DNA of 64,000 nucleotides, taken from NCBI GenBank assembly GCA_035373905.1, contig DAOSOK010000004.1, forward strand, positions 33,271 to 97,270. The letters are read 5' to 3'. Of the stretch, positions 1,485-64,000 are shown piece by piece (the first letter of the stretch is position 1; every line of letters begins with the position of its first letter). The stretch is from Candidatus Ozemobacteraceae bacterium (GTDB lineage: Bacteria; Muiribacteriota; Ozemobacteria; Ozemobacterales; Ozemobacteraceae). A model generated the notes under the pieces. That model searched no databases and was not told the DNA's origin. It was given only the letters and a program-made list of their open reading frames with translations. The translations under genes were made by a program, and so were the position numbers.

Positions 1485-3389
1485 ATGATATATATAAAGA
1501 ACCGGTCATGGCGATCCCTGGCGGCGATGCTGCCGGCGTTTCTCTGGAACCTGGCGGGAGCGCCCGTTTCGGCCCAGGGATTCGACGACATGAAACAGTA
1601 TCTCGACGTGCGCGACGCCGCTGCGGCCGTGAAGGTGGAGCTGGAACGCGCGGCGGACGGGGCTTCCGGCTCCGTCCTGCTTGCCAATCCGAAAGCCGAG
1701 CAGGAAGTGATGGACATGCTGAACTGGCTCGACGCGCGGGCGAAGGAGTTCGAGAAGCAGGCGAGTCCCCTCTCGATCTATTACAGCGATCGACTGTCGC
1801 GCATTCTGGCCGACTGTCACAGGCTGTATCCGCATTTCATCAAGCGGCGCGCCCTCGCCGCCCGGGCGGGCGTCATGCTCATGCCCCTGAGCCCGTCGAA
1901 AGGCGATCTCGAGGTCATGCAGACCCCGGCCCCCGCCCCGAACCCCGCGTCGGCGATCGCCCCCGCCGTGCATGCGCCTTCCGCGCCGATATCCCCGCAT
2001 GCGGCCGTCGCCGCTGGCGAGCCGCTGCCTGTGGCTTCCGGGCCGAGCGGCCCGAGAACAGCCGTGCTGGACGCTCCCCCGTCTCCCGAAGACGTTGTCG
2101 CCCGGCGGCGCGCGTTCTTTCACCCGATTGGGGTGCGCACCCTCCTGCCGCAGGCGACCGTCGCAGGAATCGCCGCGCAGCCCGTTCCTCCAGCTGCGGG
2201 TGTCGTGCCGGCAAGCGGCGCGGTCGCCGTCACGCCGCCGCCTGCTTCGTTTCCCGAGCTTCCGAGTCCGGTCGCGCAGGCGCCGGCCGCGTTCACCCCG
2301 CTGGAACCCTGGACCGGCGGTTCCGATCCGCAGGTGCGCGAGACGCCCGGCATGCGGCCCCTCGCGATCATGATCGAGAATCACAACCAGGCCCGCCCCC
2401 AGACCGCGATGCACGAGGCCGAGGTGGTCTACGAGATCCCGGTCGAGGGCGGCATCACCAGGTTCATGGCGCTGTATTATCACGTGCCCGAGATCGTCGG
2501 GCCGGTACGCAGTTGCCGGGAATACTTCGTGGACCGGGCGCTCGAAGTGAACGCCCTCTACGTGCATTGCGGGGGCAGTCCGAACGGCTACAAATACATC
2601 GGCGAGCAGAAGGTGTTCTCGATCGACGAGATCAGCAACGGCACGCCCTTCTTCCGCGACAATTCCCGCAAGGCCCCGCACAATCTCTACACAAAGCCGC
2701 AGAAGCTGATCGAGGTGATGAACCAGAAATACCCGATGCAGCTTCCCTATCAGAAACTGCCCCTGCCGTACGGCGAGAATCCCACGGCCGGAAACATCGC
2801 CTGCAACGGCGTTTCGATCCGGTATCACGGGAACTATACCGCTTCATATAAATTCAACCCGCGCACCGGCCGCTACGATCGGTACATGAACGGGGCGCAG
2901 CAGCTCGACCGCGTGACTCTCAAGCCGGTGTCCCCCGGGACCGTCGTCATCCAGATGGCCAACATGCGCGTCATCGACGACAAGGGGCGCCAGGAGATCA
3001 GCTTCATCGGCGAAGGCCGCGGGCTGGTGCTGTACGGCGGAACGGCGCGGCAAATCGTCTGGAAGAAGACCGCGCCGCGCGAGTTCACGCGGTTCTTCGA
3101 CGAGACCGGGAAGCCGTTCTTCTTTTCGAACAAGAGCCCCGTCTGGATCCAGGTTGTGTCACCGATCAACCGGCTCGCGTTCGATCCTCCGGTTCCCCAG
3201 AACATCATCGCCTTCCTGGGCGTTCAGCAGCCCGCAGGAAAGACAGCCGCCGCCGCGCCCGCGAATCGGACATCGACCGCGCCTGCCTCCGCGACGGCGC
3301 CGGTGACACCCCAGCCTGCGGCGCCCCCCGCCCCGGCCTCCGCATCGGCCGGTCTCCCTGCCGTTGCCAACCCGTCCGGCGCCCTCTGA
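1485..3389 (+). CDS. DUF3048-domain secreted protein with long Pro/Ala-rich linkers
   Basis: 634 aa. An N-terminal hydrophobic signal is followed by an extended low-complexity P/A/S/V linker, then a block resembling the DUF3048 N- and C-terminal domains (MIENHNQARPQ ... YYHVPEIVGPVRSCREY ... NLYTKPQ). Confidence 0.55.
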   Translation: MIYIKNRSWRSLAAMLPAFLWNLAGAPVSAQGFDDMKQYLDVRDAAAAVKVELERAADGASGSVLLANPKAEQEVMDMLNWLDARAKEFEKQASPLSIYYSDRLSRILADCHRLYPHFIKRRALAARAGVMLMPLSPSKGDLEVMQTPAPAPNPASAIAPAVHAPSAPISPHAAVAAGEPLPVASGPSGPRTAVLDAPPSPEDVVARRRAFFHPIGVRTLLPQATVAGIAAQPVPPAAGVVPASGAVAVTPPPASFPELPSPVAQAPAAFTPLEPWTGGSDPQVRETPGMRPLAIMIENHNQARPQTAMHEAEVVYEIPVEGGITRFMALYYHVPEIVGPVRSCREYFVDRALEVNALYVHCGGSPNGYKYIGEQKVFSIDEISNGTPFFRDNSRKAPHNLYTKPQKLIEVMNQKYPMQLPYQKLPLPYGENPTAGNIACNGVSIRYHGNYTASYKFNPRTGRYDRYMNGAQQLDRVTLKPVSPGTVVIQMANMRVIDDKGRQEISFIGEGRGLVLYGGTARQIVWKKTAPREFTRFFDETGKPFFFSNKSPVWIQVVSPINRLAFDPPVPQNIIAFLGVQQPAGKTAAAAPANRTSTAPASATAPVTPQPAAPPAPASASAGLPAVANPSGAL

Positions 3390-9128: not shown

Positions 9129-9510
9129 TCCCCGAGCGCTTTACGAAGCGCCCGAAAATGCGTTTTTTCCTCCGTGTCTGGTATGTGTGTTTCACTTTGA
9201 GAACCAATCCGCAGATGACGCTGATGAAGCAGATTTCGCAGATGAAACCCTGAAAACCTTCTTGCCCCGGCGTTTCCCATCCCTGGCGAAAAAAAGCTCG
9301 CTTCAGACGTTCGCTCTTATCTGCTCTTCATCAGGTTTTACATCTGCCCTCCATCTATGGGTACATTCCTGAAAACCTCGTTTTTACAACGGAGTGTCTC
9401 CATGACTCTGTGATTCGTTGTTGTTTCAACATACCGGGCATGAGGGGAAACTCATGCGCTCGTTCTGGTAGGGCCTTGCATTGAAGGCGGCGATCAGGCA
9501 TCATGCGGAC

Positions 9511-14978: not shown

Positions 14979-15155
14979 ATAACCTCCTCGAAAGGTCCAG
15001 ACGATTCGGTATCATCATCGGCAAAATCGATCGCAACCTTTACCCCATTGTCCGCGTTCGGGATGATCTCCACAGTATTTCGCCATTGCGCTGTAGGAGC
15101 GGGTTTGAAACCAGCCCCTACAGACGATTGAAGAATGAAGGGACATCAAAAGTCT

Positions 15156-15304
15156 TATTGAGTCCTGCGTATCAAAAACCAGCTTCGTGTCCCCGTTCGT
15201 GCTGAGCTTGTCGAAACACGAACAACCACTTGCTGATGGTTCCTCATTTTGCCCTACGACAGGCTCAGGGCGAACGGTTGGTTTTCATTCTGCAGGACTC
15301 AATA
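15156..15304. repeat. MITE-like repeat element (~150 bp) with 13-bp terminal inverted repeats, containing a copy of the palindromic repeat family
   Basis: TIRs TTATTGAGTCCTGC at 15156-15169 and GCAGGACTCAATA at 15292-15304. The interior is about 85% identical to the reverse complement of 44034-44183. Confidence 0.6.
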
Positions 15305-15389
15305 GTCCCATAGGGATTTTGAGGCTATCGGACCCGCGGTTGCGATCGTTCGGGCACCCCCCCGGATTTGCCCTGAGAAGGGGGGGTAT

Positions 15390-15398
15390 GGTATAAAC
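15390..15398 (+). promoter_or_regulatory. candidate extended -10 element (TGgTATAAA) for the V-ATPase operon
   Basis: TGnTATAAA-like motif about 65 nt upstream of atpE; no clear -35. Confidence 0.3.
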
Positions 15399-15463
15399 CC
15401 CGAACCCGGTCATGATGTTCGCCCGGATTTCAAAGGCCGCAGGTCACCGAAGGAGTTTCCGCC

Positions 15464-43984: not shown

Positions 43985-43993
43985 AGAAGACGA

Positions 43994-44218
43994 TCCGCAG
44001 ATGACGCAGATGGCGCGGATTGGCAGGGAAATCTATTGATTTCTGCAGAATGAAAGCCACCCGTTTGCCTTGAGTCTGTCGAAGGGCAAAATGAGGAATC
44101 ATCGGCAAGTGGCTGTCCGTGCTTCGGCAAGCTCAGCACGAACGGAGACACGAAGCTGGTTTTTGATATGCAGGACTCAATAACCAAAAAATCTGCGTCA
44201 TCTGCGAAATTTGCGGAT
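43994..44218. repeat. composite MITE-like element: outer inverted repeats (ATCCGCAGATGACGCAGAT) flanking an inner ~150-bp element homologous, in inverted orientation, to 15156-15304
   Basis: Outer arms at 43994-44012 and 44191-44218 (reverse complement, with a 9-nt insertion). The inner element at 44034-44183 has degenerate TIRs CTATTGATTTCTGCAG / GCAGGACTCAATAA and an internal copy of the palindromic repeat. Confidence 0.55.
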
Positions 44219-51321: not shown

Positions 51322-51411
51322 TTCGCACGATGTGCCCTGATCTGACAAGTTCCTGTGCGCATTTCCAGCTTCCCGTCCCTGACGTATCTGCATCCTGACA
51401 CGATGAAAGGT

Positions 51412-51465
51412 ACCCGTTCGCCCTGAGATTGGCGAGAGGCAAGTGTTTCGACAGACTCCGAACGG
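51412..51465. repeat. degenerate copy of the hairpin-forming palindromic repeat family
   Basis: cccgttcgccctgagattggcgagaggcaagtgtttcgacagactccgaacggg; the arms are related to CCGTTCGCCCTGAGCCTGTCGAAG / CTTCGACAGGCTCAGCACGAACGG. Confidence 0.5.
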
Positions 51466-51635
51466 GCGGCAACGCGGAGCTGGCTTTTGCAATGCAGAAA
51501 TCAAATGAATATCGAACCTCCGCAGTTTCGTTCTGGCCTCGGAATGCTCGTTGATTCCTGTTGCCGGGGCATCTTCGTTCGCGTAGACTTGGATGCATAC
51601 CGTTTTGACCAGCGATTCCCGCCAGGAGGTCCCCC

Positions 51636-56261: not shown

Positions 56262-56374
56262 TGGCTGGCGCTCAACGATTCGTGCGATTGTGAAAACTTT
56301 ATGAAACTCTCGAGGTAATATCTGGGAAGATCGCCAGAAGCAGGTCTTTGTGAATCCCGCAAAGGGGAAACCCT

Positions 56375-56439
56375 CCGTTCGCCCTGAGCCTGTCGAAGGG
56401 CGAGAGCCTCTCGTGCTTCGACAGGCTCGGCACGAACGG
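56375..56439. repeat. hairpin-forming palindromic repeat (near-perfect copy)
   Basis: ccgttcgccctgagcctgtcgaagggcgagagcctctcgtgcttcgacaggctcggcacgaacgg; a 25-bp inverted arm on each side. Confidence 0.6.
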
Positions 56440-56538
56440 GAACGACACATTGGCTATTGTACTGGTATGCAGGAACCAATACCGGGCAGCGTCTGGAAAT
56501 TCATGGGCCTTGAAAACGATGAAAGGATGGATGAAAAC

Positions 56539-62757: not shown

Positions 62758-62825
62758 CCGTTCGCCCTGAGCCTGCCGAAGGGGGCGAGATTCCGTTCGT
62801 GGTTCGACGGGCTCACCACGAACGG
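62758..62825. repeat. palindromic repeat copy (diverged)
   Basis: ccgttcgccctgagcctgccgaagggggcgagattccgttcgtggttcgacgggctcaccacgaacgg. Confidence 0.55.
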
Positions 62826-62916: not shown

Positions 62917-62980
62917 ATGATACATCCGTTCGCCCTGAGCTTGTCGAAGGGCGAGAGCATTCGTGCTTCGACAGGCTCAG
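62917..62980. repeat. palindromic repeat copy (near-perfect)
   Basis: ccgttcgccctgagcttgtcgaagggcgagagcattcgtgcttcgacaggctcagcgcgaacgg; two copies lie within 230 bp here. Confidence 0.6.
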
Positions 62981-63103
62981 CGCGAACGGTACCGAAAGTG
63001 CATGTGGTTGTCGTGTTCCTTTTGAGACAAGGAGGAGAATGTATATATACGATGACCGGCCCCGGGAGATGCTTTCGGGGCCGGTCGTGTCATCCGGATT
63101 CCG

Positions 63104-64000
63104 TCAGGAGCCCTTGATGTGCGTGAGGGCCCGTTCGGCCTCCTCGCGGCTCTCGTAGATGTAGGGCGAAACGCCCCGCTCGCTCAGCGCCTCGCCGAGT
63201 TTCACCCGCAGGAAGGCGCTGGTCGTGTATCGCGTGACGCCGCTGTAATACGTCTTGACGAGCCGCTCGACCATGGACGTGTAGCTGTCCACGAGATCGG
63301 GCGAGATCGTGAAATGGTCGTAGTTGACGATCGCGCCGACCTTTTTGCCGAGCGGCTTGATGAGCGCGGCCACAGCCTCCTCGATCTGGGTGATCTGCGT
63401 TTCGGACTTGATGTTGTAGCCCTCGAAGTTCACGAACAGCACGCCCTGCTGCGCGTTCAGCGTCAGGCGGGCCGAGAGCGGCACGGTGAGCAGCGCGTCG
63501 CGAAGGCCCATCGGGCCGTCCTGGAAGATGCGCGGATCCATCAGCTTCGGCGGGCTCTTGATGACGGGCTGGAACTCCATCTGGGCGAGGATGTCGCGCT
63601 CGAGATCGATGCCCGGTGCGATCTCGACCAGCTCCATGCCTTCGGGGGTGAGGCGGAACACGGCGCGCTCGGTGATGTACAACACCGGCTGCTGGCGCAG
63701 CACGGCGTGTTTTCCGCTGAACGTGACGTGCTCGACGTGCTGGATGAACTTCTTCGCCTTGCCTTCGCTCTTCACGGTCAGCTTGCCGTCGACGATTCCG
63801 AGCTCGAGCTTGCCCGCGGTGAACGTTCCGACGAAGACGACCTTCTTTGCATTCTGACTGATATTGATGAAGCCGCCGGCGCCGGCGAGGCGCGGGCCGA
63901 ACTTGCTGACGTTCAGGTTGCCCTCTCGGTCGGTCTGGGCGAGGCCCAGGAACGCCACGTCGAGGCCGCCCCCGTCGTAGAAGTCGAACTGATACGGCTG
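63104..64000 (-). CDS. C-terminal part of an acyl-CoA:acetate/3-ketoacid CoA-transferase family protein (propionate CoA-transferase-like); 5' end lies beyond the window
   Basis: The reading frame continues without a stop to the window edge. Conserved block [25 protein letters not shown]..., typical of the C-terminal domain of family-I CoA-transferases. Confidence 0.65.

Follow-up and report, generated by a model that had tools for sequence, protein, structure and literature searches.

A probable 145-bp MITE of Candidatus Ozemobacteraceae enclosing a hairpin doublet that recurs in many bacterial phyla

Introduction

Bacterial MITEs are elements of less than 200 bp with terminal inverted repeats (TIRs), 5'-TA-3' termini and target-site duplications (TSDs) (PMC2229807). 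Well-described examples are Correia/NEMIS of Neisseria, ERIC/IRU of enterobacteria and RUP of S. pneumoniae, which are non-coding, measure 100-160 bp, occur in many intergenic copies and fold into a long stem-loop (PMC2229807). RUP is thought to be mobilised in trans by an IS630-family transposase, as proposed for the pair RUP and IS630-Spn1 (PMC2229807). Integration at TA is the habit of Tc1/mariner elements (PMC2831304), and IS711, which belongs to the IS427 group of the IS5 family, duplicates the TA of YTAR (PMC2266754). A TA duplication in YTAR characterises two bacterial groups known so far, namely IS630/Tc1-mariner and IS711 of IS5/IS427.

A different kind of small repeat is the REPIN (PMC3116915), which consists of two inverted REP hairpins with a short spacer, has neither outer TIRs nor a TSD, and is also described in the form of head-to-head heterodimers (PMC3733652). 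REPs are defined by their stem and their tag, which is GTAG or CGTC-AT, and the loops of the CGTC families have 4-5 nt. Repeated sequences are also met among transcripts: in an RNA-seq study of Aggregatibacter actinomycetemcomitans, 35 of 120 sRNAs had near-identical copies elsewhere in the genome (PMC5909427).

The locus studied here lies in a stretch of 64,000 nucleotides (the window), which the source annotations assign to Candidatus Ozemobacteraceae, the next relatives being Candidatus Riflebacteria. The same sequence is also found in contig JAKPPM010000033.1 (MAG GCA_029547365.1) and in the JGI metagenome contig Ga0116186_1000019. Two inverted regions of the window are very probably copies of a recently active, 145-bp, non-autonomous MITE of a Candidatus Ozemobacteraceae (Riflebacteria) population that inserts at TA. 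The interior of the element is a pair of hairpins that also occurs by itself in distant bacteria.

Two inverted copies in the window

A reading made from the sequence alone had proposed two inverted copies of about 150 bp with some 85% identity. Alignment with MAFFT showed end-to-end identity between the two, and the agreement was slightly higher than proposed: copy A and the reverse complement of copy B are identical at 129 of 145 positions without a gap, the longest exact run being 22 nt. A repeat finder reported the inverted arms as 15155-15305 and 44033-44183 (151 nt, 89% complementary). The same reading had named a likeness confined to the palindromic core as the observation that would speak against it; when this was examined, the likeness was found to span the TIRs, the linkers, both hairpin units and the 26-nt spacer, so that similarity of the core alone does not describe the pair. 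The interval given for A, 15156-15304, proved to be exactly TA, element and TA. Terminal inverted repeats were present as proposed, perfect in A (TTGAGTCCTGC / GCAGGACTCAA; 11 nt, or 13 nt when the flanking TA is counted) and of the form TTGATTTCTGC / GCAGGACTCAA in B, and the internal palindromic repeat of each copy resolved into two head-to-head hairpin units (Table 1).

Table 1 Coordinates of the element copies, their parts and related features in the window
Feature	Position	Strand	Remarks
MITE copy A	15158..15302	+	145 nt, 92.4% identical to family consensus
TA left of copy A	15156..15157	.	putative TSD, by analogy with site B
TA right of copy A	15303..15304	.	
Left TIR of A	15158..15168	+	TTGAGTCCTGC, contains GAGTC
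Right TIR of A	15292..15302	-	GCAGGACTCAA
Hairpin unit 1 of A	15193..15223	+	CCGTTC GTGCT GAGCTTGTCGA AACAC GAAC; stem and conserved 11-nt loop
Hairpin unit 2 of A	15251..15277	-	CCGTTC GCCCT GAGCCTGTCGT AGGGC; strand opposite unit 1
MITE copy B	44036..44180	-	145 nt, 95.2% identical to consensus, inverted relative to A
TA TSD left of B	44034..44035	.	single TA at empty site in L136
TA TSD right of B	44181..44182	.	single TA at empty site in L136
Hairpin unit of B	44061..44087	+	CCGTTT GCCTT GAGTCTGTCGA AGGGC
Second hairpin unit of B	44119..44145	-	CCGTTC GTGCT GAGCTTGCCGA AGCAC
Host hairpin, left arm	43993..44021	+	CGCAGATNN 9-mers; outside the MITE, B in loop
Host hairpin, right arm	44190..44218	-	same hairpin as left arm 43993..44021
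Empty TA target site	9318..9319	.	145-nt MITE present there in sister populations L149 and L169
Old, degenerate member	51390..51504	+	right end ATGCAGAAATCAA still recognisable; common to L136, absent from L137-L139
Second-subfamily member with TIRs	56351..56483	+	17-nt spacer between units; right end GCAGGAACCAA-TA
Compact hairpin doublet without TIRs	62758..62825	+	
Compact hairpin doublet without TIRs	62926..62989	+	

Both copies are intergenic. Copy A is located between a divergent gene with a Big_5 domain and the first gene of a V-type ATPase operon, 160 nt upstream of that operon and about 60 nt upstream of a block (approximately 15366-15415, with a TATAAA-like hexamer inside) that is conserved in all relatives. 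Copy B has as its neighbours a convergent gene for a MiaB/MtaB-type methylthiotransferase and a gene of the prepilin type (N_methyl). The GC content of the element is 52% and that of the window 62.6%. A long hairpin is predicted for each strand of copy A, with folding energies of -68.6 and -68.8 kcal/mol (z = -7.6 and -6.5 relative to shuffled sequences). No promoter-like or terminator-like signal of the element's own was found; from the predicted fold, the element, when transcribed, may probably serve as a 3'-end or terminator structure. The coding capacity of the 145 nt is negligible, since five of the six frames contain stops and the open one has only 47 codons and lacks a start codon. Six-frame translation gives the strings ...LSLSKGE... 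and ...FDKLRANG..., which we take to be familiar from 'hypothetical proteins' of many phyla.

Insertion at TA

The comparison that bears most directly on mobility was made with L136 (GCA_964389325.1), a relative whose MtaB protein is 89% identical and whose DNA is 91% identical over 21 kb, with the gene order of the window. There the intergenic region at site B is 148 nt shorter and the site is empty, reading ...GGGAAATC-TA-ACCAAAAAA... with a single TA. At the junction itself, L136 has ...GGCAGGGAAATC-TA-ACCAAAAAATCTGCG..., and the window has ...GGCAGGGAAATC-TA-(TTGATTTCTGCAG...GCAGGACTCAA)-TA-ACCAAAAAATCTGCG..., where the parentheses enclose the element. When the 145 nt and one TA were excised in silico, the flanks matched L136 at 192 of 214 positions and the junction was identical. 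The check for target-site duplications that the sequence-only reading had proposed thus gave a duplicated TA at copy B. The reverse situation is found at 9318-9319, where the window is empty (GACGTTCGCTCT-TA-TCTGCTCTTCATCAGG) and L149 and L169 hold a full 145-nt copy flanked by TA. These filled and empty sites indicate that the element is TTGA...TCAA, 145 nt long, and that it duplicates TA. Judged by these alignments, it carries a 2-bp TA target-site duplication, with the formal limit that TA is palindromic, so that a filled/empty pair cannot separate a 2-bp duplication from an element with one terminal TA. The sequences compared all come from metagenome assemblies, in which repeats are prone to error.

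For copy A, no clean empty site was found among the relatives: those of 96% and 88% identity that are without A differ over a larger block, and in the 96% relative copy A is missing along with about 160 nt of adjoining sequence. The duplication at A is therefore read by analogy with site B. The independent short-read assemblies L006-L009, L012 and L147 break inside the element, which is the behaviour of a repeat in assemblies.

It had also been proposed that copy B is nested between longer inverted repeats. These repeats are real (CGCAGATGACGCAGAT at 43996-44011 and 44191-44206), but they are not part of the element, as they are present without it in L136. Each arm of this host hairpin holds three CGCAGATNN 9-mers, and copy B is located in the apical loop. 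In L136 the hairpin without the MITE lies between convergent genes and has a predicted folding energy of -43.8 kcal/mol (z = -7.0); the combined fold of the host hairpin and the inserted copy B reaches -106.7 kcal/mol. The comparison identifies the outer repeat as a pre-existing, segmented host hairpin that received the element in its loop. A supposed solo relative of the outer motif at 9208-9250 turned out not to be solo. It pairs with 9320-9347, and the two form the left and right arms of another hairpin of this kind, the right arm starting at the TA that is filled in the sister strains.

Copies, target sites and subfamilies

When a 23-nt probe from the left end was searched against a metagenome collection, 28 stretches were retrieved from three digester or sludge metagenomes, including the source metagenome. 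BLAST with the consensus gave 32 full-length copies at 29 distinct insertion sites, at least eight of them on further contigs of the source metagenome Ga0116186. The full copies are about 145 nt long, are 90-99% identical to the consensus and differ from one another by 6.1% on average. The ends are TA-flanked TIRs of 11-13 bp (TTGANTCCTGC, i.e. TTGANTCCTGC...GCAGGANTCAA), and TTGAGTCCTGC / GCAGGA(A/C)TCAA was present in all full copies. On the left side of the target, T was found at -2 in 29 of 29 sites, A at -1 in 27 and Y at -3 in 25; on the right side, TA occupied +1/+2 in 25-26 of 29 sites and R position +3 in 24. The flanking TA with Y and R outward of it defines the target as YTAR. All 29 sites fell outside predicted coding regions according to a crude ORF caller, whose strand calls are unreliable (that at site A was wrong). 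The presence of near-identical copies at no fewer than 29 intergenic sites points to recent activity.

Two sub-variants of the element were recognized by four linked positions, one of which is the N of the GANTC in the right end. Older subfamilies have the same ends and the same hairpin core with other linkers, examples being 56351-56483 of the window, L161:4709-4850 and L164:10341-10466. The window holds four further, more diverged members of the family, at about 51.4, 56.4, 62.76 and 62.93 kb. The copy at 51.4 kb is shared with L136 and is missing from more distant relatives, which suggests a long history of insertion for the family.

Structure of the core hairpin doublet

Each element contains two hairpin units on opposite strands, arranged head-to-head. 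A unit consists of a 5' tag, mostly CCGTTC, a stem NNNCT/AGNNN and the 11-nt loop GAGCYTGTCGA; the stem has 5-9 bp, of which 5 bp covary. In 147 units (one per locus) the 5-bp stem was paired at 90.9%, and 161 double-sided changes were counted in it, compared with 60 +/- 5.5 in column shuffles (0 of 500 reached the observed value). With the partner shifted by one column, the pairing breaks down. Hardly any variation is seen in the loop and the two closing pairs. All four combinations of the Y of one loop with the R of the other occur, which gives no sign of selection for loop-loop pairing. The two units of a doublet usually differ in their stems (GCCCT versus GGGCT or GTGCT), and this disfavours one long perfect hairpin. 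Head-to-head pairs accounted for 416 of 475 units, a proportion biased by the way in which the loci were retrieved.

On the GAGC strand of each unit, 64 G-T pairs and 22 A-C mismatches were found at stem positions 3-5. As the units lie on opposite strands, no single transcript would profit from the G-T pairs of both; the excess of G-T speaks, if weakly, for a fold formed in the DNA strands and not in a single transcript.

Occurrence of the doublet outside the lineage

The doublet, with its 11-base loop almost unchanged, was found in at least eight bacterial phyla, and the phyla and classes concerned include Proteobacteria, Actinobacteria, Bacteroidota, Chloroflexi, Cyanobacteria and Calditrichia. 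The string of the core motif is CTGAGCYTGTCGAAG, and the 15-nt hairpin motif CT-GAGCYTGTCGA-AG occurs in hundreds of copies in many genomes. In the GTDB species collection, a strict two-unit pattern matched at least 120 genome stretches from many phyla; among the matches listed, the hosts were Chloroflexia and Leptolinea; Microbacterium, Plantibacter, Agromyces and Aeromicrobium; Ferruginibacter, Mucilaginibacter and Bacteroidales; Calditrichaceae; Synechococcus; and alpha-, beta-, gamma- and delta-proteobacteria. BLAST against plasmids matched 35 records, from Sphingobium, Sphingomonas, Moraxella, Methylobacter, Variovorax and Comamonas, always in unannotated intergenic DNA. In the AT-rich Moraxella and Methylobacter the doublet forms a GC-rich island. 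It is carried by 25 IMG/VR contigs and by none of 50,697 cultured phage genomes.

Outside the lineage the doublet is usually alone, with neither TIRs nor a duplication. At the borders of compact or isolated doublets no target duplication was detected at offsets 0 to 9, and an outer inverted repeat of at least 11 nt was found in only 13 of 99 isolated doublets, the sequences being mutually unrelated. Among nine related Moraxella plasmids searched for an empty site of a compact doublet, all nine were filled. The outer helix is specific to lineages: CCGTTC in Sphingomonadales and Burkholderiales, CCTCA in other Alphaproteobacteria, CGGTC in Microbacteriaceae and TGTC in Bacteroidota. Around the 120 loci listed, the recurrent neighbour genes were of generic families only, a survey that a single-copy gene would escape.

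Methylobacter and Methyloglobulus have a form of 112-118 nt, TA|T(T/A)GATTCGGCC...doublet...GGCCGAATCAA|TA, which shares with the window element the first seven bases (TTGANTC) and the TA flanks, the linkers being unrelated. The ORFs adjoining the Methyloglobulus copies encode GTPases and a cupin, and no transposases. As the TIRs and the core are conserved across a phylum boundary and the linkers are not, the element can be read as having two layers. We read it as a REP-like hairpin pair that would also travel inside a MITE shell of TA-flanked TIRs.

The motif was also compared with catalogued families. The CGTC super-family of REPs of Di Nocera 2013 (CGTC tag, 8-9-bp stem starting with AT, 4-5-nt loop, CCA tail) was considered and rejected, as the doublet has a CCGTTC-type tag, a covarying 5-bp stem and an 11-nt loop. 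No matching sequence was found in the text and supplements of a survey of REPs (PMC3733652). A literature search with sequence and peptide strings returned unrelated primers only. At gathering thresholds, Rfam gave no match in the whole window; permissive scans of the elements returned sub-threshold similarity to RF02901 (AaHKsRNA41) and chance miRNA and snoRNA matches only. The scores of RF02901 were 11.6 bits for copy A and 22.4 bits for a copy from Moraxella, the gathering score being 97, and its consensus holds the doublet (CUGAgCUUGcCGAAGC..GgUUCGgCAAGcUCAg). Rfam has no family for the doublet except inside this species-specific entry.

Discussion

The 145-nt element falls within the size range of a MITE, about 50-300 bp, has no coding capacity, and shows the TIRs, the filled and empty sites with a TSD and the multiple dispersed copies of such an element. 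Like Correia/NEMIS, ERIC/IRU and RUP, it lies within 100-160 bp, is non-coding, has TIRs with terminal 5'-TA-3' and a TSD, is present in many intergenic copies and folds into a long stem-loop (PMC2229807). It differs from them in that no sequence similarity was seen, the host is a MAG of the Riflebacteria lineage, and the interior is a hairpin doublet that is also free-standing in many phyla rather than a deleted IS. The element agrees with a Correia/ERIC/RUP-type MITE in every testable character, the partner insertion sequence being the exception.

In 416 kb of sequence from the lineage, neither a longer copy nor an autonomous element with these TIRs was found, inverted end pairs 0.2-4 kb apart included no real one, and multi-copy ORFs among the MITE-bearing loci were orthologues only. 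It had been claimed that the window encodes no transposase, and no transposase domain was indeed present among the annotated window genes examined. Taken together, the lack of a longer copy, of spaced end pairs, of a multi-copy ORF and of a transposase domain indicates that the element is non-autonomous. The proposal of non-autonomous, MITE-like elements was borne out by the two filled/empty pairs, the 29 TA-flanked sites, the assembly breaks within the element and the absence of a transposase domain.

The candidate families of the enzyme are those suggested by the target site. An element mobilised by an IS630/Tc1-mariner enzyme inserts at TA and duplicates it, and IS711 shares both this behaviour and the YTAR consensus of the 29 sites; the difference is that no such gene and no full-length element with TTGANTCCTGC ends were found in the sequence searched. 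The element is probably moved in trans by an IS630/Tc1-mariner-like or an IS5/IS427-like transposase, of which the IS630-like enzyme may be somewhat more likely. A DDE transposase encoded elsewhere in the genome would bind the TIRs, make a 2-nt staggered cut at TA and then integrate the element.

Other explanations of the two regions have to be weighed against the MITE. The sequence-only reading suggested that the copies could mediate inversion, and they might be products or substrates of a rearrangement in which the 29-kb segment was flipped by recombination between them. The copies are indeed inverted, 28.7 kb apart and 89% identical, but the relatives that lack B (L136) or A (L142 and L143) have an unchanged gene order across both junctions, so no sign of inversion was found, and two independent assemblies of 194 kb show colinearity with the window. 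No exact match between A and B exceeds 22 nt, a length at or below the minimal efficient substrate of RecA. With identity uninterrupted over so short a run, recombination between A and B should be rare, and an inverted segment is the least credible of the explanations considered. Hardly more credible is the view that the regions represent a pair of paralogs encoding a structured sRNA related to Aggregatibacter sRNA 41, which would be kept by selection for a regulatory function and would not be mobile DNA. Their folds are very stable, and RF02901, the only similarity in Rfam, has the same doublet in its consensus; it also resembles the window sequences, in particular a form with a 37-nt spacer, in its outer helix acggcuuG/Caagccgu and its 44-nt spacer. 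AaHKsRNA41 was detected by RNA-seq (PMC5909427), which implies that at least one version of the module is transcribed. The RF02901 model nevertheless describes a species-specific transcript with its own terminator and with the units paired as one long hairpin, and it is not annotated as a repeat or as mobile. The score on copy A is far below the gathering score, the 29 sites lie in unrelated gene contexts and in both orientations, close relatives are polymorphic for presence and absence with a TA duplication, and the element has no promoter-like or terminator-like signal of its own.

It is unlikely, although less so than either of these, that the elements are REPIN-type doublets copied through single-stranded DNA by a single-copy HUH tyrosine transposase (RAYT) and not MITEs. 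The core has the two inverted hairpins and short spacer of a REPIN: like REP doublets, it is a head-to-head pair of short hairpins, usually with different stems, each following a conserved unpaired 5' tag (CCGTTC). It is intergenic and multi-copy, the isolated doublets of other phyla have neither outer TIRs nor a target duplication, and the excess of G-T pairs would suit folding of DNA strands. The CGTC super-family is a further parallel, as it too is found across phyla and lacks a transposase of its own (PMC3733652, PMC3116915). Against this, the 145-nt copies end in TIRs of 11-13 bp about 35 nt outside the hairpins and are flanked by TA at no fewer than 27 of 29 sites, where the empty site has a single TA, whereas mobility of the IS200/IS605 and RAYT types duplicates nothing. 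The tag here is CCGTTC, CCGCTC or CCTCA and not GTAG or CGTC-AT, it is the 11-nt loop that is invariant and the stem that varies, and no RAYT gene was seen in the part of the genome that was read. REPINs are without enclosing TIRs and TA duplication and the doublet of the window has both; on account of these outer repeats and the duplication, the 145-nt element is not a REPIN. Insertion of a MITE at TA remains the preferred reading of the two copies.

The hairpin pair inside the MITE calls for an explanation of its own. The invariant loop, the covarying stems and the lineage-specific outer helix would imply a sequence-specific recognition partner, presumably a protein with single-stranded DNA or RNA as its substrate, and this protein would have to be extremely conserved or else to travel with the module. 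The core is a separable module that would be a REP-like pair of single-strand DNA hairpins with its own recognition protein; in Ozemobacteraceae and Methylococcaceae it rides inside a shell of TA-flanked terminal repeats. An alternative to an independent module is that the isolated doublets are decayed MITEs. We tentatively propose, as a possibility short of an even chance, that the doublet is an uncatalogued, pan-bacterial, REP-like module with a recognition partner, and that the Ozemobacteraceae and Methylococcaceae elements are two-layered, with a DDE-type enzyme as a second route of mobility.

Significance

Taken as a MITE, the element adds one more example to a known kind. It is a well-documented transposon with recent activity, and its host belongs to a candidate phylum (Riflebacteria/Ozemobacteraceae) from which mobile DNA has hardly been described; it accounts for contig breaks in several public assemblies, and its insertions are markers that are polymorphic between strains. 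The further interest comes from the core pair, which is pan-bacterial, supported by covariation and uncatalogued. Its motif would explain a class of spurious conserved 'hypothetical proteins' that arise from its translation and, if a dedicated recognition protein exists, the doublet would represent a widespread, unrecognised DNA-protein or RNA-protein system that is directly testable.

Variation of the hairpin doublet

Among the loci from many bacterial taxa that carry the doublet (L016-L135), the two head-to-head hairpin units at the core of the MITE, the loop is universal and the outer helix is lineage-specific (see the table). In several outer-helix lineages, every unit of the doublet is a complete hairpin of its own, with 9-11 bp. 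Some genomes of Burkholderiales and Microbacteriaceae have tandem arrays, adjoining a complete doublet, that arose by amplification of hairpin half-units; one such array has a period of 24 nt (CCTGAGCCTGTCGAAGGAGCCTGT).

In Gammaproteobacteria, the same doublet lies inside a TA-flanked form of 112-118 nt with TTGATTCGGCC ends, which is a cross-phylum relative of the MITE in the window; its linkers are unrelated to those of the window element. The end of the Methyloglobulus morosus contig also falls within a copy. The doublet from Moraxella (L014:2987-3081) gave a weak full-length match to the plant MIR439 precursor model (19.3 bits, E = 0.21), which arises via a common CCUGUCGAA...UUCGACAGG palindrome and is most likely due to chance.

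Terminal repeats

The terminal repeat of the MITE reads TTGANTC in all variants, N alone being different (GAGTC, GATTC or GAATC), and the same holds for the Methylococcaceae form. GANTC is a CcrM/HinfI-type methylation site. It has been described in the CIR repeats of Caulobacter as well (PMC2229807).

Positions and taxa of the repeat features
Feature	Position	Source
Outer helix CCGTTC/GAACGG		Sphingomonadales, Burkholderiales, source MAG of the window
Outer helix CCTCA/TGAGG		Other Alphaproteobacteria
Outer helix (C)CGGTC/GACCG		Microbacteriaceae
Outer helix TGTC/GACA		Bacteroidota, Calditrichia
Outer helix ACCGTA/TACGGT		Sphingopyxis
Half-unit tandem arrays	L083:300-390; L057:1-60; L060; L102; L118:5700-6200	
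TTGATTCGGCC-ended form	L108:803-914	Methyloglobulus morosus
TTGATTCGGCC-ended form	L015 ~2962-3082	Methylobacter plasmid
TTGANTC ends	15158-15164, 15296-15302	Window, copy A
TTGANTC ends	44036-44042, 44174-44180	Window, copy B
TTGANTC ends	Copy ends in L146-L173	Metagenome loci
TTGANTC ends	L015, L108	
CGCAGATNN array hairpin	43993-44021 / 44190-44218	Window
CGCAGATNN array hairpin	9208-9250 / 9320-9347	Window
CGCAGATNN array	63384-63399	Window
CGCAGATNN array	L136:11288-11382	Relative GCA_964389325.1

Other repeats in the window

A lone palindrome, CTGTAGGAGCGGGTTTGAAACCAGCCCCTACAG, is located at 15091-15123, 35 nt to the left of copy A, and its sequence looks like that of a GTAG-tagged REP. 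Beyond this site, no further copy was found in the window or in the other loci compared. The entire block ~15058-15365, palindrome included, is absent from a 96%-identical relative (L141). The direct repeat 38124-38360/40587-40823 (80% identity, spacing 2463 nt) belongs to a pair of paralogous genes of the pyruvate:ferredoxin-oxidoreductase gamma type (PF01558); it is an ordinary gene duplication with no relation to the MITE.

The lineage has another family of repeats, the CGCAGATNN 9-mer arrays, which is kept in the 89% relative. Inverted pairs of these arrays give segmented long hairpins 3' of genes, in which helices of 8 bp each are separated by 2-nt internal loops. MITE insertions are found in or adjoining such hairpins at 3 of the 29 sites.
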